DNA of 64,000 nucleotides from an uncultured Candidatus Poseidoniales archaeon (GTDB taxonomy: Archaea; Thermoplasmatota; Poseidoniia; Poseidoniales; Thalassarchaeaceae): the NCBI GenBank assembly GCA_964003245.1, contig CAXFIU010000002.1, positions 7,177 through 71,176 on the forward strand. Direction: 5' to 3'. The notes under the pieces were generated by a model. The model saw only the letters and a list, made by a program, of their open reading frames with translations. It did not search any database and had not been told where the DNA came from. The position numbers and the translations under genes are program-made. Positions 35,880 through 47,679 of this stretch are shown here, in pieces; position 1 is the first letter of the stretch, and each line of letters starts with the position of its first letter.

Positions 35880-36758
35880 TCACTCATTCAGTCTGTCAAT
35901 TAATTCAGCCTTTTTACCTGAAACAGGTTTACCTGCAGCCTTCAGAAGTTCCTTTAATTCGCTGACTGTTAACGAAGAATAATCTACTTCCGCACTTTCA
36001 GAAGATTCTGCCTCTGCTACCTCTTCAGAAACTATTTCTTCATCAGTAATTTCCTCGCTTACCTCTTCAGTAACCTCGGAAGATTTTGCTTCTAATTCTT
36101 CTTTTTCTTGAGCATGAATCTCATCAAGAGTTGGCCCATCTTCTACCAAGACTCCTGATTGAATTAGTTGGGTGCGGCGAATTACAACAGTTCTAACAGG
36201 TTGGATTTTAGATACAGCCTCTTTGATTTTATTCTCAAGAGTTCCATCAAGTGTTGCTGTTTGTAAACTGAACCATGTTGATGTTGCTCCAGTAGTTAGG
36301 ATAATGTCTCTGGCAATTGTACGCATTTTCTGTTTCTGGCTGGACTTTATCCTAGCTCTTGAAATCATCAGCGGTTTGAAGCGAATATAATAACCATCTT
36401 CAGTTACAACATCGATTGTGTCATCAATTTTCCCACGATCTCTTCTTACCTGCCTGCGAACATGATCTTTCAAAAGTTCATGACCTACAAATTCTGTAAT
36501 TGCGTCGTTTCCAAGAACATCTGTAACTTTGAAAACAACTTTAACATGCATCTTAGAAAAATCACCATCTAATTCATTTTGAATAATTTCATAATTTCTT
36601 CCGATTAATTGAGAAGGTTCCTCTGCTAGAGTCTCTCCTATTACTCTAAATGACCAAGGAGTTCTAGGAGCCCTGATAGTATACCAACGCTTTGCCTTCC
36701 ACTTATCTCTCTGTTTACGTGCCGCTGCTCTTGCTGATGCTCCTTTTGCCATTTTCAA
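35880..36758 (-). CDS. rps3ae: 30S ribosomal protein S3Ae (eS1) with C-terminal acidic linker and SAP-like domain
   Basis: KQRDKWKAKRWYTIRAPRTPWSFRVIGETLAEEPSQLIGRNYEI is the S3Ae signature. The extra ~90 C-terminal aa end in LTVSELKELLKAAGKPVSGKKAELIDRLNE (SAP/HeH-like). Confidence 0.8.
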   Translation of the reverse strand: MKMAKGASARAAARKQRDKWKAKRWYTIRAPRTPWSFRVIGETLAEEPSQLIGRNYEIIQNELDGDFSKMHVKVVFKVTDVLGNDAITEFVGHELLKDHVRRQVRRDRGKIDDTIDVVTEDGYYIRFKPLMISRARIKSSQKQKMRTIARDIILTTGATSTWFSLQTATLDGTLENKIKEAVSKIQPVRTVVIRRTQLIQSGVLVEDGPTLDEIHAQEKEELEAKSSEVTEEVSEEITDEEIVSEEVAEAESSESAEVDYSSLTVSELKELLKAAGKPVSGKKAELIDRLNE

Positions 36759-38734: not shown

Positions 38735-39772
38735 TTATTTCCTACCACGAGTTGTTCCGAGTTTTCTTGACTGCTTCTTACCCTTAATATTCTTAGTAAC
38801 AGGGGATTTTGAATCACCTGTTAAAACTCCACCGAGAGTTAATGATCCACTGTTGATTAATTGAGATGCCAAAGAATCAGCCATCCCCTCATCTTCACTT
38901 GGTAACTTTAGAGCATCTTTGACAGATTGATTATGATCTTTAATTACTTTCAAACGTTCTTCTTCAGCAGCTTTCATTTCGTCTCTAATCTCATTTACTT
39001 GACCAATTAACTCTTTCATATTCTCATGAACTTCATTAGCAGATTCTCTATGTGCGACATATGCTAAATGGAATCTATCAGCCTCCGCTCGCAGAAAGTC
39101 TCTTTCCGCTAGCATAGGTTTCACATCTTCCCAAATTAAATCTGCTTGCTTATGAAAATCAATCATTTCTTGGTGCGCTTTATCTGCTTCGGATTTTAGT
39201 AATTTGATAGAACCATCCATGTCTCCTATATCAATATTAATTGCCTCAAAGTCTTTTACTGCAGGCATTAATTTATCTCTCTTAGAGATTAAAACTTTTA
39301 ATTTCTTAAGTAATTTATTCTCGGTTTCTAAAATTAATCGGCCATCAGTCATCATAGTATTCTCGATTTTTTCTATTTCATTAATAGTCTCAGATAATTC
39401 TATGACAACAGACTTAGTACCTTTAGCCTCATCTTTACGACCCCTATTTTGATTAATCAGTTCTCTAATTTGATTTTGAATTTCATCTCTTCTTGCTTTA
39501 CATATTTGAGCCTGGTCTCTTACTTTTTTCTGTTCGTCTAATTTCTCTTTAATGGATTCTCTGATTTCCTTACTTTGTTCTTGTAAAGCATTTCTTGAAT
39601 CCGCAGCTCGACGAGCATCTTCATTAAATGAATTCCTTTGATCTTTCATTCTACGGATCTTTGTTTCCATAGCATGTAATCTTGTTCTAAGATCATCATC
39701 AGGTCCCTTCTGCTCATCTTTCACAAGGCTCGCGAGAGAGGGCCCCTTCTTCAATGAAACTACTTGATTCAT
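38735..39772 (-). CDS. Coiled-coil protein, family member 1 (basic KR-rich C-terminal tail)
   Basis: Heptad-rich, highly charged. C-terminal motif LINSGSLTLGGVLTGDS then KGKKQSRKLGTTRGRK, shared with the ORFs at 44810 and 45861. Confidence 0.45.
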   Translation of the reverse strand: MNQVVSLKKGPSLASLVKDEQKGPDDDLRTRLHAMETKIRRMKDQRNSFNEDARRAADSRNALQEQSKEIRESIKEKLDEQKKVRDQAQICKARRDEIQNQIRELINQNRGRKDEAKGTKSVVIELSETINEIEKIENTMMTDGRLILETENKLLKKLKVLISKRDKLMPAVKDFEAINIDIGDMDGSIKLLKSEADKAHQEMIDFHKQADLIWEDVKPMLAERDFLRAEADRFHLAYVAHRESANEVHENMKELIGQVNEIRDEMKAAEEERLKVIKDHNQSVKDALKLPSEDEGMADSLASQLINSGSLTLGGVLTGDSKSPVTKNIKGKKQSRKLGTTRGRK

Positions 39773-41334
39773 AGACCTAGAAGTGATGTAAAGAAAGGTA
39801 AAATTGGAGAAATAATGGCTAATCCAGCACCAATTAAGAATATTGCTCCGATTGAGACCCTTAATCTTGTGAATAAATCTGCCCTATTTTGTACGGTCAA
39901 TACTCTACCACTTAGTAAGTTGCCTTCTTCATCTTCTAATCTAACAGTTACAGTAGCCTCCCCTGGTTCTTCCGGTAATAGACTCTGCCAAACAATTTCT
40001 GTCGATTTTATAATCGAAGGTAATTTTTGTACAAAAGATTCGTTATCAATTTTACTTAATAGAGCATTACTAGAATTAACGCGAAGTTTGTAAACACATT
40101 CAGAAGGACGGAAATCAGGTGTTTGAATCTTTAAGATAAGGTTCACAGGTTCAGGGCCATTATTCAAAACATAAGCAAATAAATTTGCCTGGCCTACAAC
40201 AAGATTTTCCATATCTACATCAAACCAAATTTCATGATTGATTCCATTATCTATTTTCATTCTTAAACGATCATGGAGTCTAAAAAATGATGCACATCTA
40301 TCTTTAGCTCGAATTATTAGACGGTCCCAAGTCTCTTCACCAAGTTCTGGGTGTCGAAATAATTCGTCAATAATTTCTAAAGGCATCATTATTTCAAGTT
40401 CTGATCGGAAATCTTCTTCGTCTAAATATCCAGCTCTTCTTAGATGTAATAGATGAAGAAGCTTTTCTTGTAACTCAGATATATTATTGCCTTCATTAAC
40501 AGAATGTTGTATTGATCGAAGATATTCAGAAATACGAACTGAAAGTAAAGGATCTACATGTGCACTAATTACGTCGCTAAAGGGCCTTTTCAATAAAGCG
40601 GGATGGATAGGGGGGGAAAAGGAATCTAGCATACCCCAAGTTTCACAAGTGTTGAATCTCGATCTATCAGAGACCATGTGTACTCCATGTCCACATAAAA
40701 GAAAACCAGTTGAAAAGGATAGTAAAACAGAGTTGCCACTAACGATATCGGAAAATTGAAGGCTAGAAATTAAGAAGATCCCAGAAAGAAACATTAGAAA
40801 TGTCGTAGCAATCAGTTGTCTAAAAGAACCTTCTATAGTTTCTTTCATTTCAGCATATCCGTGAGCACTCCTGAAAGTTAAACCTGTCTTTGTGAGATAA
40901 TTAGATTGAATATTAAAAATTCTTCTTGTAACCGACAGTAATAGTAAAAGTAAACAAAGAAGCCCTAGATCTGCCACAATAAAGAAGAATGCCAGATAAT
41001 ATAACCCTACTTCGATAGTAATATCAAAAGGAATTACAGGTAAGACATGGTCAACCCACCAATCTGGCTCAGAACCAGTGAAGGATTCTGCGAATCCATA
41101 TAATATGATTACGAAAATTGGAATAACTAATACGAATCTAGCACCCCTGCTGATAAATAATCGATCTAACTTAACAAGATTCCTTTCATATTCCTGCAAC
41201 CTATCTATAGTTTTTTGATCATAATTTTTGTCATTACTAAACTTCTGATTCACATCATTAAACTCTGGTGCAGATGGAATTTCAATATCCTCTTCGGAAG
41301 AAAGAATATCGAAATCATCATTATTAATTGACAT
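39769..41334 (-). CDS. Polytopic membrane protein, hypothetical
   Basis: Multiple TM helices in the first ~230 aa and at the C-terminus, with a soluble ~250-aa domain between. No motif recognised. Confidence 0.35.
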   Translation of the reverse strand: MSINNDDFDILSSEEDIEIPSAPEFNDVNQKFSNDKNYDQKTIDRLQEYERNLVKLDRLFISRGARFVLVIPIFVIILYGFAESFTGSEPDWWVDHVLPVIPFDITIEVGLYYLAFFFIVADLGLLCLLLLLLSVTRRIFNIQSNYLTKTGLTFRSAHGYAEMKETIEGSFRQLIATTFLMFLSGIFLISSLQFSDIVSGNSVLLSFSTGFLLCGHGVHMVSDRSRFNTCETWGMLDSFSPPIHPALLKRPFSDVISAHVDPLLSVRISEYLRSIQHSVNEGNNISELQEKLLHLLHLRRAGYLDEEDFRSELEIMMPLEIIDELFRHPELGEETWDRLIIRAKDRCASFFRLHDRLRMKIDNGINHEIWFDVDMENLVVGQANLFAYVLNNGPEPVNLILKIQTPDFRPSECVYKLRVNSSNALLSKIDNESFVQKLPSIIKSTEIVWQSLLPEEPGEATVTVRLEDEEGNLLSGRVLTVQNRADLFTRLRVSIGAIFLIGAGLAIISPILPFFTSLLGL

Positions 41335-41343
41335 GAAAATACC

Positions 41344-41991
41344 TTATTCTACTCTGACTATGACTTTGAAACTCAATTCTCTTGAGAAGATGATTTCAGA
41401 ATCATCGCAATAAAATTTATCTGATTTTTTAATAATCTTGGAACCAATTTTCACACCCGCGTTTTCTAATGTTTTAATTGCAACACTGCTAGAATAAATT
41501 AGTTCAATTATTGAAGGTGTATCATCGGGTAGTGCAGATAAAGGTAAAAGTATATTTGACGTAGAAGTGATCATACTTCTATCGACAATTGGAATCATCC
41601 GCCCCTCTCTATTTCTCTCAGGATAACCCAACATTCTATCGATACATGCTTCTAATTCAACATCTATACCATGCTCAATCTTACAGGCAGCTGCATCAAC
41701 ATCTCCATCGAATCGAATCACATCAGATAATAAAATTTTCAACAACTCTTCTCTTCTCTTGATTCTAGATGCATGTGTAAATCCTTCAGAAGTTAGCCTG
41801 CACCCTTTGTAAGGAATATATGTCACATAATCTCTTCCTGCTAGTCTTTGAATCATTTCAGTTGTAGATGCTGGACTTACATCCATTAGTTCAGCTAATT
41901 TGGTAGTTCGAACGATTTCTCCAGGTTCTTCCGAATGTGCCTCGAAAATTCTTTTGAGATACATTTCTTCAAACTCACTCAATTTAGACAT
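41344..41991 (-). CDS. DtxR/MntR-family metal-dependent transcriptional regulator (wHTH + dimerisation + FeoA/SH3-like C-domain)
   Basis: TTKLAELMDVSPASTTEMIQRLAGRDYVTYIPYKGCRLTSEGFTHASRIKRREELLKILL matches the DtxR N-terminal HTH/dimerisation region. A FeoA-like C-terminal domain is present. Confidence 0.6.
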   Translation of the reverse strand: MSKLSEFEEMYLKRIFEAHSEEPGEIVRTTKLAELMDVSPASTTEMIQRLAGRDYVTYIPYKGCRLTSEGFTHASRIKRREELLKILLSDVIRFDGDVDAAACKIEHGIDVELEACIDRMLGYPERNREGRMIPIVDRSMITSTSNILLPLSALPDDTPSIIELIYSSSVAIKTLENAGVKIGSKIIKKSDKFYCDDSEIIFSRELSFKVIVRVE

Positions 41992-42000
41992 ACAAACACC

Positions 42001-43935
42001 TTAACCTATTTTTGCTATAAATTCAACTCTACAAGCAGGACAACGCGACCTGACAGGCCTCTTATCGAGTGCTACTCTAAGAGTTTGTTCACATTTTGGA
42101 CAAGCTAATAAATCAGTTAACGATGATGCCTCGGGTTCAGAAACAATAACTTCATTCTCTGATCCATCTATTTCTTCGTTATCTGATGTCTCACTCTCAA
42201 TTAAATTATTTTGAGAGAATTGCAAAGAGCAGGCAGGGCATTTAACAGAACCAAAGTGATCGATTGGAATATTCAATCTCTGACTACAAGAAGGACAAGA
42301 AACTTCCTTCTTTGATTCAGAATTATTATTACTTGAAGTTCTATTTGACAAATTACGCCTAAATAGAGTTGATTCTGTCGAAGGTGTACGTTGAGAAATT
42401 ACTCTATAAATTACCAAGCAAGTCATAACAATAGCTAGGCCGGATAGGGCTCCATAAATTGCAGCATAGATGCTAAAAGGTAGTGAGAAACTAGTGCCAC
42501 TCTCAGATTCAACGAGAACTGATGTTTGATTACTCACACTGATATCTCCCATGGACCAAATAAATTCAATATTAGTAGTTTGAGAATATTTCCATGAAGA
42601 AAATTCTACTGAACCTGAATATTTACCTCCACTACTTATCGAAGGTATTGATATTTCTGTAAATACTAGAGGCGGTTGGGCCACATCAACTATTCTCAAT
42701 AATCCAGGAGATGTTTCTGAAGCTCCAGTATTCTCTAAAGTGTATTCAATAGAGAAAGATTCGCCAGCAGATATAGGAGAAGGAGATGCGTCTGAAATAA
42801 TTATTGAGGGAATTACTAATGGAGGAGTTAATTCAACAACTACTTCTCCGTCTCCATTCAAAGGAAGCCAATAATTAGGGCTAACAATCACCTTTAGTCG
42901 ACTCGCATCAGGATGACCGAGTTTTAGGTTGATATTTCTAATTCCAGGATTCATTTGTAAGGTAAATGTTTGATATTCAGTGTATTCGTTACCTGATTTC
43001 ATTAATACTTCGAGATCTACGCTGCGATTCAGTCCTGAACTTAGATAAATTGAAACATCTAAATTGATACCGTCTTGAAAAGTCCAAGTAATTTCTTCTA
43101 ATTCGACATTAATATCCTGAGATTCTCTAACCTCTATATTCGAGCTACCGTTCAGAGAGATATCGACACCGCCATTCAAAGAAGATACCTTCCAATCAAT
43201 TACTAGAGAACCAGACAAAAGAGGGATGAAGTTAGCAGAAACTTCTCTACTAGAACCGGGAGAGATTACAATGAAATCTCCATTGACTAAAGTTGACCCA
43301 TCATCTTTAGTTAACTCTAGTCTAACAGAATCACTATTAGATCCTTTATTATGGACTAAAATTGAGGCAGTAAGTTGGTCTCCAACATGAACTGGTTGGC
43401 CAATAATAACAATCTCTTCAGAACCTGCAGATGAAAAATTAACAGGATTAGGACCTACTCGCATTTCAAGAATTTCAATTTCTTCAGTATTATCAACTTG
43501 CAACTTGCAAAGGATATAACCTTCACTAACTGGTCCGAAAGAAATGACGACATCGGTAGCAGATGCTGTGCCGTCTAATATCCCTGAATGCCCACCATAC
43601 CATTGTCCACCATAACCAAAACTAAAACTCCAAGATGAATTATCAGATGAAAGATTCGAATTGAATACTTGAATCTTCAGATCCACAAAATCCCCGTCAG
43701 AAGCAGAATCATTACCTGTTTTTTCCAGAGTACCACCGTCTAAATATTCAATAGACCATGTATTACTATCTGAAATGGTAAAATCGTCATCAGAGGCGGT
43801 AACATTATACGAAAAAATTATCATTAATATTGATAAATATAAAAAAACCTTCAAAGAAGAAACTGTAACTCTTCCGGTCATTAGATAATACTCGACAAGA
43901 ACAACCGTATGAATGAAACCCCTCTTCGGGGTCAC
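42001..43935 (-). CDS. Cell-surface protein with beta-rich ectodomain, single TM and cytoplasmic tail bearing two zinc ribbons
   Basis: Signal peptide (LKVFLYLSILMIIFSYNVTA). TM AIYGALSGLAIVMTCLVIY. Tail has CPSCSQ...CPACS and CPKCEQ...CPACR. Confidence 0.45.
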   Translation of the reverse strand: MTPKRGFIHTVVLVEYYLMTGRVTVSSLKVFLYLSILMIIFSYNVTASDDDFTISDSNTWSIEYLDGGTLEKTGNDSASDGDFVDLKIQVFNSNLSSDNSSWSFSFGYGGQWYGGHSGILDGTASATDVVISFGPVSEGYILCKLQVDNTEEIEILEMRVGPNPVNFSSAGSEEIVIIGQPVHVGDQLTASILVHNKGSNSDSVRLELTKDDGSTLVNGDFIVISPGSSREVSANFIPLLSGSLVIDWKVSSLNGGVDISLNGSSNIEVRESQDINVELEEITWTFQDGINLDVSIYLSSGLNRSVDLEVLMKSGNEYTEYQTFTLQMNPGIRNINLKLGHPDASRLKVIVSPNYWLPLNGDGEVVVELTPPLVIPSIIISDASPSPISAGESFSIEYTLENTGASETSPGLLRIVDVAQPPLVFTEISIPSISSGGKYSGSVEFSSWKYSQTTNIEFIWSMGDISVSNQTSVLVESESGTSFSLPFSIYAAIYGALSGLAIVMTCLVIYRVISQRTPSTESTLFRRNLSNRTSSNNNSESKKEVSCPSCSQRLNIPIDHFGSVKCPACSLQFSQNNLIESETSDNEEIDGSENEVIVSEPEASSLTDLLACPKCEQTLRVALDKRPVRSRCPACRVEFIAKIG

Positions 43936-43976
43936 ATAGTGACCTTTATTGATACCTTTCGTTAGCCCCGTGTAAT

Positions 43977-44813
43977 ATGAACACAGATGAGCTTCTCGCA
44001 GTCACGCCGGAAGAGATGGCTAAATCTCTACTAGCTCGTAGGGAATTGCTAAGGCAACAATTGCCTACTGTAATTAGAACATTAGAAGCTGATGAACAAA
44101 ATCTCGCACCTAAAGCGAAAAAAGCTGTTGAAATTAGTAAAAATATAAATTCTAAAGTTAGTGAATTAAAAGAAGAGAGAAACAAAGCTCAGAAAGAAGC
44201 AAATGAGTTACTGAAGATTGTTAAAGAAAGTAGAGAGAAACTAATTCAAAGTGATGGAATGATTAATCTTGATCCTTCTTGGAAGAAGGAAAAAATGTTT
44301 GAAGAAATAGAAGATATTGAGAAAAAAATAGAAACATCAGCTTTAGACCACAAAGCCGAAAGAAAGTTGTTAGATAAAAGAAAAAAACTGATTGAAGAAA
44401 ATGATAAATGGCTTAAACAAAGAAGAGACTTAAATCCCGAGATGGTTACATACATAGATGCAAGAAGAGAAATGAATAAACTTTACAGACTAGCAGATAA
44501 ATCACATAGAAAAATGCTTGATGGAGTAGAAAAAGCTCAACCACAACATGAAAAACAACAGAAAATTAGAGATGATTTGCGTGAAATCCGAAGACAACTA
44601 GACAGAGCTAGAGAATTACTATCACAGTCTGATCGAGCAATTGAGTATTGGGAAAGAAGACTAGACAAAGGATTTGGAGAATTAGGAGATGGTTTCAAAG
44701 ATCTATTATCGGCACAAAGAAAAGTCGCCGAGGGAGGAGATTCATCTTTTGCTAGAAAGAAGAAAATCAAAAAGGTAGAAAATATTTCTAAAAAGAAGGA
44801 GGAAGAGGAATGA
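43977..44813 (+). CDS. Coiled-coil protein, family member 2
   Basis: Charged heptad-rich sequence, KR/E-rich tail. Weaker C-terminal motif (AEGGDSSF). Confidence 0.4.
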   Translation: MNTDELLAVTPEEMAKSLLARRELLRQQLPTVIRTLEADEQNLAPKAKKAVEISKNINSKVSELKEERNKAQKEANELLKIVKESREKLIQSDGMINLDPSWKKEKMFEEIEDIEKKIETSALDHKAERKLLDKRKKLIEENDKWLKQRRDLNPEMVTYIDARREMNKLYRLADKSHRKMLDGVEKAQPQHEKQQKIRDDLREIRRQLDRARELLSQSDRAIEYWERRLDKGFGELGDGFKDLLSAQRKVAEGGDSSFARKKKIKKVENISKKKEEEE

Positions 44814-45790
44814 GTGATTCAGAACCTCAGAGTGGAATCTTTGCAGATTTAGAAGATATGTCTCACAAAGATGTTGAGTTATTATCCAAAAAAATAGAAC
44901 GGGAAATTAGAACTATTGAAGAGGAACATAGATCATTGAGGAATGAAAGGAAAAATCAAGTAGAAATTGTGAAATCATTACGTCAAGCAGTCGGTGAGAA
45001 CGAAGCTATCAGTGAAGAAAGAAGAGGACTATTAAGGAAATTTCATCAATCTAGGAAACAGGCAGAAGATGCAAGAAAGAAGAGAGATTCCGTCAATTCA
45101 TCAATCCCTCCTCCATCAGCCATTCTCGCAGAATGGATGGTTGAAACACACCAGAGATTAGTTACAATAGATAATGATTTGACGGCAGTGCCAACACTTC
45201 ACAGAGAAATTGACATGTTCAAGAGATTTTTTGAACTTCAGGCAGCATTTACAAGAAAGCAAGAATCGGAAAAATACCATGAAGAATATGTAAATTATAT
45301 CAAAGAAATCAGAGTCATTACCAAAGAATTAGATGCTACAAGGAAGGAATCTTCTCAAGAAAAGACCGGAGATTCTTCTTCAACAGAAGAAGAAATTAAT
45401 CCCAGTAATGTGAATCGCTCAGATGTTAGAAAAATTAGCAAAAGAATTAAGAAAATCGATTCTCAATTGGATAGGATATCTGAAGAAAGAAAGTCATTAA
45501 GAAAAGAAGCAAATCGTCTAAGGACATATCTTAGAGTTACTAGTAGCAGAGGAAAGCCGATAAAAATCTCCGAAGTTAAAGATAGGGCAACAAGTGGAGA
45601 TTCTCTAAATACACAGGAATTAGGCGCATTACTTCGAACTGGTGGCCTCGCAGAATTAACAAAAAGTAATTCAAAACAACCTAAGAAAAAGCAACCGAGG
45701 AAAAATAAAGGGAAAAAACAACATCGTAAGCTTGGGGTTGCCAGAGGAGGGGCACGATTGGGTTCACGAGTTTCTAAAAGAGATGATTGA
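44810..45790 (+). CDS. Coiled-coil protein, family member 3 (basic tail)
   Basis: C-terminal TSGDSLNTQELGALLRTGGL then a basic tail ending QHRKLGVARGGARLGSR. Start overlaps the previous stop by 4 nt. Confidence 0.45.
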   Translation: MSDSEPQSGIFADLEDMSHKDVELLSKKIEREIRTIEEEHRSLRNERKNQVEIVKSLRQAVGENEAISEERRGLLRKFHQSRKQAEDARKKRDSVNSSIPPPSAILAEWMVETHQRLVTIDNDLTAVPTLHREIDMFKRFFELQAAFTRKQESEKYHEEYVNYIKEIRVITKELDATRKESSQEKTGDSSSTEEEINPSNVNRSDVRKISKRIKKIDSQLDRISEERKSLRKEANRLRTYLRVTSSRGKPIKISEVKDRATSGDSLNTQELGALLRTGGLAELTKSNSKQPKKKQPRKNKGKKQHRKLGVARGGARLGSRVSKRDD

Positions 45791-45860
45791 GCAGTTGGCC
45801 ATTTTACATCCTTCCTATGCCCTTATATGATGACATTAACTCGGACATTATGACAGGTGC

Positions 45861-46736
45861 TTGCTAATGATGGATTTTGATGAGGTTAGAGGTGTTCTAA
45901 CACCTAAAAGTACTTCATTAGATGAGAAACTTTCTGAATTCAGAGAAGATAGAGATAACTGGAATGCTAAAGTCAAAAAATACTTGACGGAAAGAAACGA
46001 AATCAATAGACAAGTTAAGGAATTAATTACTGAAGTTCAAAATCAAAAAGTAATAAGAGATGAAGCTAATTCTAAAGTCAAAGATCTAAAAATTATTCGA
46101 GCAGAAAGGTCCTCTGTTCTAAAACAACTTCGAGCAGAATTACAGGAAAAAAGACCTGTTGAACAGAAAAAAGAAGAAAAGAGAGAGAAGAAGCGTAATG
46201 AAAGAACTATCCGAAATGATATTGAAAAAATGGATATGAAATTTAATTATGGACATTTTCAAGGTAAGGAAAGAAATTTTGAAAGACAAATGAAGAAGTT
46301 ATATCAAGAGTTGAAAGAAATTAAAAAGCAAAAGAAAGAAAATATTTTTTCCGAACTAGAATCACAAATAAGAAAAGCAGCAAAATCTCAAGAAGAAGCT
46401 CACAGACTTGTAGAAGATGCTGTTAATACCGCTCAAGAATCTCATGATTTAATGATAGAATTATCAGAGGAAGTAGATAGATTGAGGGCAAAGGCAAATA
46501 CATCTCAAGAAGGAGTAATACGTTCAAAAAGGGAAGCAGACTTGTTACATAACAAATATGTGGTTTCACTGAGAAGTATTCATTCTATTCAAGATTTATT
46601 CAAGGCGATGATTGCACAAGAGAAGGATGTTGAGGACGATGATGGTAGCAAGTTAGAGGTCACCGACTTGATGTCCAGATTGATGTCAGGAGACACTCTA
46701 TCGACAGAAGAACTGATGGCTTTACAAAGAAACTAA
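45861..46736 (+). CDS. Coiled-coil protein, family member 4
   Basis: Ends with MSGDTLSTEELMALQRN, the same SGD-x-L-[ST]-T-[EQ]-EL motif as members 1 and 3. Confidence 0.45.
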   Translation: MLMMDFDEVRGVLTPKSTSLDEKLSEFREDRDNWNAKVKKYLTERNEINRQVKELITEVQNQKVIRDEANSKVKDLKIIRAERSSVLKQLRAELQEKRPVEQKKEEKREKKRNERTIRNDIEKMDMKFNYGHFQGKERNFERQMKKLYQELKEIKKQKKENIFSELESQIRKAAKSQEEAHRLVEDAVNTAQESHDLMIELSEEVDRLRAKANTSQEGVIRSKREADLLHNKYVVSLRSIHSIQDLFKAMIAQEKDVEDDDGSKLEVTDLMSRLMSGDTLSTEELMALQRN

Positions 46737-46737
46737 G

Positions 46738-47679
46738 CTACAAATCGTAAGTCTTTCCATTCTGACTATGAAGTATTTTTTCTTCTCCATCCTCAAATAT
46801 TAATTTCCAGGCTGGGATTTGTGCAAACTGGAAATCAAAATTTAGTGAGGACAAGTCAACCCTCCACCATTCAAGCATCGTTGACTTAACTAATTCTGTA
46901 GCATCATTTGATTCTTCTTTCTTTCTGTAATCAAGCATTGGTTTAAGATTAGTTTTTAATTGATCTAATGAAAGCCAATTATTCTCTGAAGTTTTAATTT
47001 GCCGGAGATTAGGAGAGTTAAAGAAAATATGTTCTTCACTGAAAGGGAAAATCTTTTTCATCCAGGGATCCTCAATAAAAGCCCATTTTTTCCCATCCTT
47101 GATAGAATCAGGCCCTATCATTAAGCCCGAAATTTTCCATAGTTTAACTACTAAAAACACTGGCATGGAATTTAAAGAACCGGAAGGTTCCGTTTGAAGC
47201 CAATCTTCTAATTTAATTATTGGATTAAGAGTTATAGTCTCAGTTTCTCGATCATTGTTAATATCTTCAAAATTATTCCCCCCTACTGAAATCTCTTCAT
47301 TTGAAGGATTCTTAACAATTAAATCACCCCTTAAAACAGATTCGCCAATCCACCTAGATAATTTATCAGGCCCCCAAGTAATAACTCTGAAATCATCAGG
47401 TAGATCAACAAGAATATCTTCAGTAATTTTTCTTTCACTAAGTATCCAGTGTCGATCCCCTGGTGCATCAATTGACCATCTTTCAATTTCATTTTTAGAA
47501 ATAGGCAATATATCTGATTGGACATGCCAAATATATACTGATGAATCACTCATTTCATCAAAATCAAGTAATTTTTCTGCAACACCTAGACATTTGAATC
47601 CGTAAATATTGAAGCTTTTTCCTGTAGGCTCTAAACTAACTGTTCGAGAATTAAGAATGGCTCGAACAATTTCTTCCAT
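46738..47679 (-). CDS. Hypothetical protein
   Basis: 313-aa ORF just downstream of L30e in the RNAP operon direction. No recognisable motif. Confidence 0.3.
   Translation of the reverse strand: MEEIVRAILNSRTVSLEPTGKSFNIYGFKCLGVAEKLLDFDEMSDSSVYIWHVQSDILPISKNEIERWSIDAPGDRHWILSERKITEDILVDLPDDFRVITWGPDKLSRWIGESVLRGDLIVKNPSNEEISVGGNNFEDINNDRETETITLNPIIKLEDWLQTEPSGSLNSMPVFLVVKLWKISGLMIGPDSIKDGKKWAFIEDPWMKKIFPFSEEHIFFNSPNLRQIKTSENNWLSLDQLKTNLKPMLDYRKKEESNDATELVKSTMLEWWRVDLSSLNFDFQFAQIPAWKLIFEDGEEKILHSQNGKTYDL

Follow-up and report, generated by a model that had tools for sequence, protein, structure and literature searches.

Organization of the locus

The genes described here lie within a 64,000-nucleotide stretch of DNA, hereafter the window, from an uncultured Candidatus Poseidoniales archaeon of the family Thalassarchaeaceae (assembly GCA_964003245.1, contig CAXFIU010000002.1, positions 7,177 to 71,176). 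They code for four coiled-coil proteins (cc1 to cc4), a metal-dependent regulator of the DtxR/IdeR family, a membrane protein (mem521) and a surface protein. Marine Group II (MGII) archaea are uncultured and count among the most abundant planktonic archaea; the Thalassarchaeaceae correspond to Marine Group IIb (MGIIb) and the Poseidoniaceae to MGIIa, both within the order Poseidoniales. The window has a G+C content of about 36% and also encodes the split RpoA' and RpoA'' and the ribosomal proteins S3Ae and L30e. For cc4 and mem521, database proteins at 99–100% identity bear the name of Candidatus Thalassarchaeaceae.

The cluster is arranged as two divergent, tightly packed operons (Table 1). 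On the minus strand the surface protein gene is followed by the genes of the DtxR homolog, of mem521 and of cc1, with two spacings of 9 nt and a final overlap of 4 nt, the start of cc1 overlapping the stop of mem521. On the plus strand the stop of cc2 overlaps the start of cc3 by 4 nt, and cc4, which probably has its own promoter, begins 76 nt past cc3. A GGAGG at 44798–44802, inside the terminal Glu codons of cc2 and 7 nt ahead of the cc3 ATG, is likely the ribosome-binding site of cc3 and would point to a translational coupling of cc2 and cc3. The conserved ...GEEE end of cc2 probably exists because its Glu codons spell this GGAGG, and for this simpler explanation we dropped the idea that the acidic end is a functional tail.

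All the open reading frames (ORFs) listed in an earlier note on this DNA, made from the letters alone, are present, with two start codons corrected. The start of cc4 is most likely the ATG at 45867, because cc4 homologs measure 289 aa. The GTG that opens the listed ORF of the surface protein (43933–43935) falls within a conserved palindrome; more likely the protein starts at residue 19, with a conserved ATG (43881) that lies 54 nt downstream of this GTG. The coiled-coil ORFs are as extremely charged as had been said, D, E, K and R making up 38–45% of their residues. Rfam and tRNA scans gave no match in the cluster region, and the PADLOC models of anti-phage defence, run against eight proteins of this region, gave nothing but coiled-coil noise (JetC and LmuB, at E 1e-3 or worse).

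Table 1. Genes and sequence elements of the cluster, in window coordinates
Feature	Position	Strand	Length	Basis or remark
cc1	38735–39772	minus	345 aa	ORF list
cc1 basic tail, KGKKQSRKLGTTRGRK	38738–38785	minus		conserved among orthologs
mem521, membrane protein	39769–41334	minus	521 aa	ORF list
DtxR/IdeR-family metal-dependent regulator	41344–41991	minus	215 aa	PF01325 + PF02742
Surface protein	listed ORF 42001–43935, likely 42001–43881	minus	644 aa as listed	
Surface protein zinc ribbons, two CxxC...CxxC	~42217–42303 and 42028–42111	minus		in the tail
CGTATGAATGAAACCC	43906–43921			23–38 nt upstream of the surface protein ATG; best-conserved intergenic block across MGIIb lineages
Palindrome GGTCAC-ATA-GTGACC	43930–43944			directly adjoins the TATA-like box ahead of cc2; intergenic alignment
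TTTATT, TATA-like box	43945–43950	plus		27–32 nt upstream of the cc2 ATG
cc2	43977–44813	plus	278 aa	DUF7121 paralog
cc3	44810–45790	plus	326 aa	most diverged DUF7121 paralog
cc3 motif, SGDSLNTQELGALLR	~45593–45637	plus		family motif
cc3 basic RG-rich tail, KGKKQHRKLGVARGGARLGSR	~45677–45787	plus		conserved among orthologs
cc4	listed 45861–46736, likely 45867–46736	plus	291 aa listed, 289 aa likely	canonical DUF7121
cc4 terminal motif, ...DLMSRLMSGDTLSTEELMALQRN	46686–46733	plus		family motif

Conservation of the cluster

Six core genes—cc1, mem521, the DtxR homolog, the surface protein, cc2 and cc3—keep the same order and strand in 74 of 74 GTDB loci of MGIIb and in 33 of 36 metagenome loci, thus in 107 of the 110 loci covering the block, with both families of the order represented. 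The earlier note had allowed that the neighbourhood might not be conserved in any relative; it is conserved well past the close ones. The GTDB genomes were scanned with nine sequences, and the 80 closest loci all have the gene arrangement of the window, lack the nucleotidyltransferase described below and are collinear from S3Ae through RpoA''; MGIIa was reached through the metagenome scan and not through this one.

The collinearity of the 80 close loci alone cannot tell function from inheritance, but the deeper lineages do. There the upstream flank is altered, PdxS/Fdx being inverted or spaced away, and L30e lies about 5 kb distant; cc4 stays downstream of the six-gene block on the same strand, with two to three genes between cc3 and cc4. 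In MGIIa the core, at 25–40% protein identity, keeps its order and strand while the flanks rearrange. Among the loci examined, the multi-paralog cluster is confined to Poseidoniales.

The surroundings of the block show some features of their own. Most other Poseidoniales lineages have, between cc3 and cc4, genes for a GNAT acetyltransferase and a KaiC-like ATPase together with a ~105-aa ORF (L086:8306–9800, L168:8336–9854), and PurP after cc4; the lineage of the window has lost all four from the locus. Between cc4 and L30e the window carries an ORF of 313 aa (46738–47679, minus strand) that matches nothing in Pfam or NCBIfam; its position is kept in MGIIb and its stop lies 1 nt from that of cc4. 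PdxS and cc1 are also convergent without spacer. Further out, S3Ae (35880–36758, minus strand) contains an acidic linker and ends in a SAP domain (PF02037, 1.6e-13), and the same pair of Pfam families, S3Ae and SAP, matches the ortholog in locus L001.

The four coiled-coil proteins and the DUF7121 family

Judged by their sequence profiles, cc1 to cc4 are all homologs of Pfam DUF7121 (PF23435), alias COG1340, a pan-archaeal coiled-coil family; on the same grounds cc4 is the canonical copy and cc1, cc2 and cc3 are diverged duplicates, cc3 the most diverged of them. The 64-kb window holds no further DUF7121 ORF. Pairwise BLASTP among the four is weak (E from 1e-5 to 0.1), and the Pfam gathering cut-off of 29 bits is reached by cc4 only (42.2 bits, against 28.8 for cc2, 19 for cc1 and no match for cc3); in locus L001, the orthologs of cc1 and cc2 are labelled DUF7121 in the precomputed Pfam table. 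When cc4 was searched against 1.84 billion cluster representatives, 250 relatives came back at E 1e-3 or better, many of them about 285–300 aa long and aligned end to end at 25–49% identity. A hidden Markov model (HMM) built from 56 diverse family members scores cc4 at 273 bits, cc1 at 81, cc2 at 46 and cc3 at 18.

Profile-profile comparison is more telling. Ortholog profiles of each gene, drawn from 80 genomes, match each other at 97% for cc1 and cc4 (E 2.6e-11, 254 columns), 88% for cc1 and cc2, 87% for cc2 and cc4, and 79% for cc3 and cc4, the last over the C-terminal motif alone. Against the profile of the 56 members, hhalign gives 100% for cc4, 99.4% for cc1 (277 columns), 98.1% for cc2 (165 columns) and 95.4% for cc3 (77 columns); at mact 0.1 the alignment of cc3 runs end to end over 234 columns, bringing the RDxVN repeat, K.E..H..Y motif and C-terminus of the family into register. 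Reversed-sequence controls stay at 1% or less. The paralogy put forward in the earlier note is thus borne out, with 95–100% to DUF7121 for all four copies, and the ORFs do not behave as unrelated low-complexity sequences whose homologs have no alignable C-terminal motif. Its statement that no described system could be named was too strong, as the coiled-coil proteins belong to a family that has a name.

COG1340 was described in 2005 as a group highly conserved in archaea whose function is unknown (PMC1322226), and we found no functional study in the literature on DUF7121, PF23435 or COG1340. Its proteins are deposited as "coiled-coil protein", "coiled-coil DUF342 family protein" or "phosphoserine phosphatase". 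The third of these names stems from genuine fusions to HAD/SerB (proteins P0293, P0299, P0329 and P0335, from Methanocellales where a name is given). Outside Poseidoniales, DUF7121 is solitary and found in other gene contexts: in Methanocellales it follows SHMT and SerB, in Thermoplasmata it precedes SRP54 and PhoU, and in Methermicoccaceae it overlaps a HAD-phosphatase gene. In two loci, of Methanocellales and Methermicoccaceae, it comes directly after the HAD/SerB gene (L082:1730–3250, L091:4102–5719). This gene order, SerB then DUF7121, suggests that the enzyme is N-terminal in the SerB fusions.

The canonical family and cc4 share their length, their hairpin fold, the RDxxN repeats, the tip motif and the C-terminal motif G-x-x-L-S-T-E-E-L-M-x-L-Q. 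The differences lie in the setting and in the other copies: elsewhere DUF7121 occurs once and lacks these partners, whereas here four copies share operons with a regulator and membrane proteins, two of them with added RKLG..RG tails and one without half of the motif.

The C-terminal motif itself deserves some comment, since the earlier note had given it to three of the four proteins and treated it as a feature of this cluster. In the form SGD[ST]L[ST]T[EQ]EL.AL.R it is present in cc3 and cc4; in cc1, however, it is degenerate (SGSLTLGGVL, ~38822–38851), and cc2 retains only its first half (GG.SSFA). Nor does it belong to the cluster: it is the signature C-terminus of the entire DUF7121 family, whose consensus f..fk.GEKLSTEDLm.LQkaGll is found in members of many archaeal lineages. 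What distinguishes the paralogs within Poseidoniales is what follows it, each type having its own conserved ending. In cc4 the protein stops directly after the motif, at the extreme C-terminus; in cc3 a tail of about 50 aa trails it, made in the orthologs of a variable Lys-rich linker and then a conserved RKLGV.R.G.RKG; in cc1 it is also trailed by a tail, RKLGTTRGRK, kept in 21 non-redundant orthologs. The basic tails that had been noticed on two copies are therefore real and conserved, and from these alignments the RKLG..RG tails of cc1 and cc3 are lineage-specific.

The AlphaFold2 (AF2) model of cc4 (predicted local distance difference test, pLDDT, 92.9) is an antiparallel helical hairpin, with helices 4–106 and 160–252 as arms, small helices at the tip, and a terminal helix-turn-helix (helices 259–273 and 280–288) formed by the family motif. 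A Foldseek search of this model against the PDB returned generic coiled coils only, none at E 1e-3 or better, the best matches being arms of SMC, MukB, Rad50 and EnvC/PcsB. HMM matches to SMC/Rad50-type proteins are weak too, limited to the arm region and far under the cut-off (e.g. 29.5 bits against 567). Unlike SMC and Rad50, the coiled-coil proteins of the cluster are about 300 aa long and entirely helical, without ATPase head, hinge or zinc hook; as far as the model goes, the likeness of cc4 to the SMC/Rad50/EnvC arms is generic to the fold. We also considered aRDF (PF0560), a ribosome dimerisation factor of which cryo-EM structures have been reported and which is stated to be restricted to Pyrococcus (PMC11724365). 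This candidate was rejected: a sequence search of the PDB with cc4 and with the DUF7121 family profile gave no significant match to any chain.

The regulator and the divergent control region

The assignment of the regulator to the DtxR family, made in the earlier note, is solid. Both Pfam domains score over their cut-offs (PF01325 at 57.9 bits, 1.2e-15; PF02742 at 51.2 bits, 1.2e-13), and 31 relatives are found in the PDB. The primary metal site, Met10, Cys103, Glu106 and His107, aligns four out of four with M10, C102, E105 and H106 of DtxR (3glx) and is kept in 33–38 of 39 orthologs. Some loci have a shorter homolog of 136–141 aa (L086:3424–3834, L092:2694–3104, L168:4365–4790) without the C-terminal extension of about 80 aa that the protein of the window carries; that of L086, the one read, retains the Met/Cys/Glu/His site.

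Repressors of the DtxR/IdeR/MntR group bind a palindromic operator of 19 bp, their targets being autoregulated or divergent. The divergent region of the cluster, about 95 bp long once the start of the surface protein is corrected, contains three elements conserved among distant orthologs. One is CGTATGAATGAAACCC, which by its position would be the TATA/B recognition element (BRE) of the minus-strand operon. Another is the TTTATT box, which nearly every orthologous locus has as TTTAAT or TTTATT and which, again by its place, is a putative promoter element of the cc2 operon. Adjoining it is the palindrome GGTCAC-ATA-GTGACC; the search for an operator that had been advised for the 43936–43976 interval thus yields a candidate. 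In 17 non-redundant loci the palindrome extends to AAGGTCACATAGTGACCTT, with arms of 8 bp, a length reached by at most 2 of 200 shuffles. Other lineages have other palindromes at the same position, e.g. TATAGCCC-ACATA-GGGCTATA, ACCCACCC-GTAA-GGGTGGGT and CCCCAC-TTTA-GTGGGG. The 64-kb window holds no second copy.

Such a series would look like the operator of a dimeric regulator that co-evolves with its protein, and we regard the palindrome as the candidate operator of the DtxR homolog. Compared with DtxR, IdeR and MntR, the system shares both Pfam domains, the primary site and a palindrome of 15–19 bp at the promoter; on the other hand this palindrome differs from the DtxR consensus, and the putative targets are coiled-coil and membrane proteins, not recognisable metal-uptake genes.

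The surface protein and mem521

The surface protein is built as had been predicted, with a signal-like segment, an ectodomain, a single transmembrane segment (491–509; ~42409–42465) and a cytoplasmic tail with two zinc ribbons. The ectodomain, acidic and Ig/CARDB-like (it matches CARDB), diverges among orthologs to 24–45% identity. The conserved part is the tail (ORF residues 510–644), where the 69 orthologs examined retain both ribbons, of consensus CPxCxQrL..P..H.G.VkCPaC and CPxCxQxLxvp...RPv.sRCPaCr.EF, together with a juxtamembrane motif, RTPST.

By its hydropathy mem521 is polytopic, also as predicted, with about five hydrophobic segments, i.e. about four N-terminal and one C-terminal transmembrane segments. 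Its soluble stretch, some 265 aa long (residues ~223–487), is a conserved domain and, following the positive-inside rule, would be cytoplasmic. Many His, Asp, Cys and Glu residues of mem521 are invariant. The search returned 380 homologs, of which the best 120 are full-length at 48–100% identity; the few named sources among these 120 are Thalassarchaeaceae or "Euryarchaeota archaeon". Going by these homologs, mem521 is found only in Poseidoniales. It has no match in Pfam, and 5 of 24 orthologs match two DUF families so weakly that nothing meaningful can be drawn from it; its AF2 model is too poor to use (pLDDT 54). Pfam and HMM searches gave no transporter or receptor family resembling mem521 or the surface protein. 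We also asked whether mem521 is related to the DUF373 membrane protein that adjoins DUF7121 in Methanocellales, and found no relationship (hhalign probability 0.5%).

A nucleotidyltransferase fused to cc3 in MGIIa

On one metagenome contig the gene overlapping the end of cc2 encodes a fusion protein of 710 aa. Its residues ~1–340 are a terminal nucleotidyltransferase of the Cid1 family (PF22600, 2.5e-31, plus PAP_assoc), which matches human TUT4 (1.7e-43), plant URT1 (2.6e-43) and yeast Cid1 (1e-34); from ~370 on it is a full-length ortholog of cc3 (tblastn to the cc3 of the window, E 1.6e-23). The protein also contains RGG-type repeats. The full-length fusion is present on about 55 marine metagenome contigs, at 35–91% identity, and occupies the position of cc3 in 31 loci that span the block. 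One NCBI member of its cluster was deposited as a Candidatus Poseidoniaceae archaeon, i.e. MGIIa. The gene lies at L093:407–2539 and is also found in L094–L148, L151 and L158. The enzyme is apparently active: 53 distinct fusion sequences keep its catalytic motifs, which read FGS...GD.DLCL, VD.S.NN, SSYAW and EDPF..HDL.

In this fusion the enzyme is N-terminal and the C-terminal motif of the family is left free. N-terminal enzymes and a free C-terminal motif would fit a targeting or scaffold role of DUF7121 in general. If the cluster is compared with the systems of TUT4/7, URT1, Cid1 and Trf4-Air-Mtr4, the MGIIa ortholog of cc3 carries the full Cid1-type core and the PAP-associated domain; the cc3 of the window, however, is without the enzyme domain, and the cluster contains neither a helicase nor an exosome gene. 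The zinc-ribbon protein recalls the zinc-knuckle partners of Cid1-family enzymes, but by resemblance only, and here the ribbons belong to a membrane protein. In the open-access literature we found no description of a Cid1/TUT4-type enzyme in archaea.

A model for the cluster and its alternatives

We tentatively propose, as a possibility somewhat short of probable, that the cluster encodes a metal-regulated, membrane-tethered coiled-coil adaptor module, possibly linked to RNA. The narrower claim, that it is a co-regulated functional unit, we hold with considerably more confidence. The earlier note had thought of a scaffold, cytoskeletal or signalling module at the membrane and had not considered RNA, towards which the Cid1/TUTase fusion and the RG-rich tails point. 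In the model, the DtxR homolog, once it carries a divalent metal, would bind the palindrome between the TATA-like boxes and control both operons, its own included; its Met/Cys/Glu/His site resembles that of the Fe(II)-type DtxR/IdeR. The coiled-coil paralogs would form a hetero-oligomeric adaptor or scaffold on the cytoplasmic face of the membrane, docked on the double zinc-ribbon tail and/or on the cytoplasmic domain of mem521. Such a physical module is plausible because the operon structure is tight: the gene overlaps, the 9-nt gaps and the GGAGG ahead of cc3 argue for co-expression. The conservation of the zinc-ribbon tail while the ectodomain drifts argues for membrane anchoring. The working ends would be the free C-terminal motif and the RG-rich basic tails, with RNA as the most likely ligand, because in MGIIa a Cid1/TUT4-like enzyme with an intact active site is joined to the cc3 ortholog; the RG tails of cc1 and cc3 and the RGG-type repeats of the fusion lead to the same reading. 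The platform would thus recruit an RNA-directed activity, the enzyme domain itself being absent from cc3 of MGIIb.

Several observations weigh against this proposal. The RNA link is drawn by analogy from the sister family, and neither tblastn nor an HMM of the MGIIa domain finds a nucleotidyltransferase domain in the window or in the MGIIb loci. The fusion or adjacency of DUF7121 to the HAD/SerB phosphatase in methanogens speaks more for a generic scaffold than for a function dedicated to RNA, and anionic lipids or DNA are equally possible ligands of polybasic tails. As to the regulation, the ancillary metal site (H79, E83, H98) is not kept, R, L and D standing there in the alignment to 3glx, and the palindrome has no counterpart in some lineages, none being clear in the main MGIIa clade. 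As to the membrane, mem521 is absent in one deep-sea lineage, where cc1 comes directly after the DtxR gene (L161:4564–6303). Besides, compact archaeal genomes can preserve a gene order that has no functional meaning.

This last point leads to the view that there is no module at all, only unrelated genes that streamlined genomes keep together by inherited synteny, with the targets of the DtxR homolog elsewhere. The housekeeping flanks are indeed equally collinear in the 74 MGIIb genomes, and cc4, with its own promoter-like region, is separable from cc3. Nevertheless inheritance would hardly account for a core that keeps order and strand in MGIIa at such low identity amid rearranged flanks, nor for the start/stop overlaps, the 9-nt gaps and the conserved divergent control region, and we consider this view very unlikely. 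A unit of metal, presumably iron, starvation in which the DtxR homolog represses a surface receptor and a membrane transporter, the coiled-coil genes being passengers or accessories, would make sense of the Fe-type primary site, of a candidate operator between both promoters, of the invariant His, Asp, Cys and Glu residues of mem521 and of the acidic ectodomain. However, neither membrane protein is like any transporter or receptor family, mem521 is dispensable in one lineage, the best-conserved part of the surface protein is the cytoplasmic one, and three or four coiled-coil genes are always kept with the locus; this explanation seems to us distinctly unlikely.

More attention is due to a purely structural role, in which the DUF7121 paralogs polymerise under the membrane as a skeleton, their tails bound to anionic lipids and the membrane proteins serving as anchors, for the shape or the envelope of the cell and without RNA. 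The predicted long antiparallel hairpin, similar to the arms of SMC, MukB and EnvC, would suit it, as would the basic tails and the translational coupling of cc1 to the membrane protein, and the SerB fusions show that the family can carry unrelated enzymes. But it leaves unexplained the apparently active Cid1-type enzyme fused to cc3 in MGIIa as well as the RGG-type repeats, there is no sign of filament formation, and the canonical DUF7121 of other archaea does without membrane partner; we hold it to be rather unlikely. At the opposite, the adaptor model can be pushed further, to an iron-regulated, membrane-tethered platform for the tailing or surveillance of RNA 3' ends, an archaeal counterpart of the TUTase/TRAMP adaptors in which the hairpins with their RG tails would present RNA to an enzyme of Cid1 type, one that MGIIa has as a fusion and that MGIIb has as a separate protein or has lost. 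This we find improbable, about as much so as the iron unit.

Significance

The DUF7121, DtxR, CARDB and zinc ribbon families are known already; in the literature searched we found neither the multi-paralog cluster nor its control region nor the fusion to the nucleotidyltransferase. The locus gives DUF7121/COG1340 its first context: a candidate regulator with its operator, candidate membrane partners and lineage-specific tails. The family moreover has two independent enzyme fusions, to a Cid1-type nucleotidyltransferase and to the SerB phosphatase, with the enzyme N-terminal where the order could be read, and the Cid1/TUTase fusion is the first hint of a function for DUF7121. A eukaryote-like enzyme of the Cid1/TUT4 type in archaea would bear on the origin of RNA tailing and, if the cluster were indeed a tailing platform, the pan-archaeal DUF7121 would be a general RNA-associated scaffold. 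Retained in nearly all the spanning loci of both families, the cluster likely matters to the biology of MGII.

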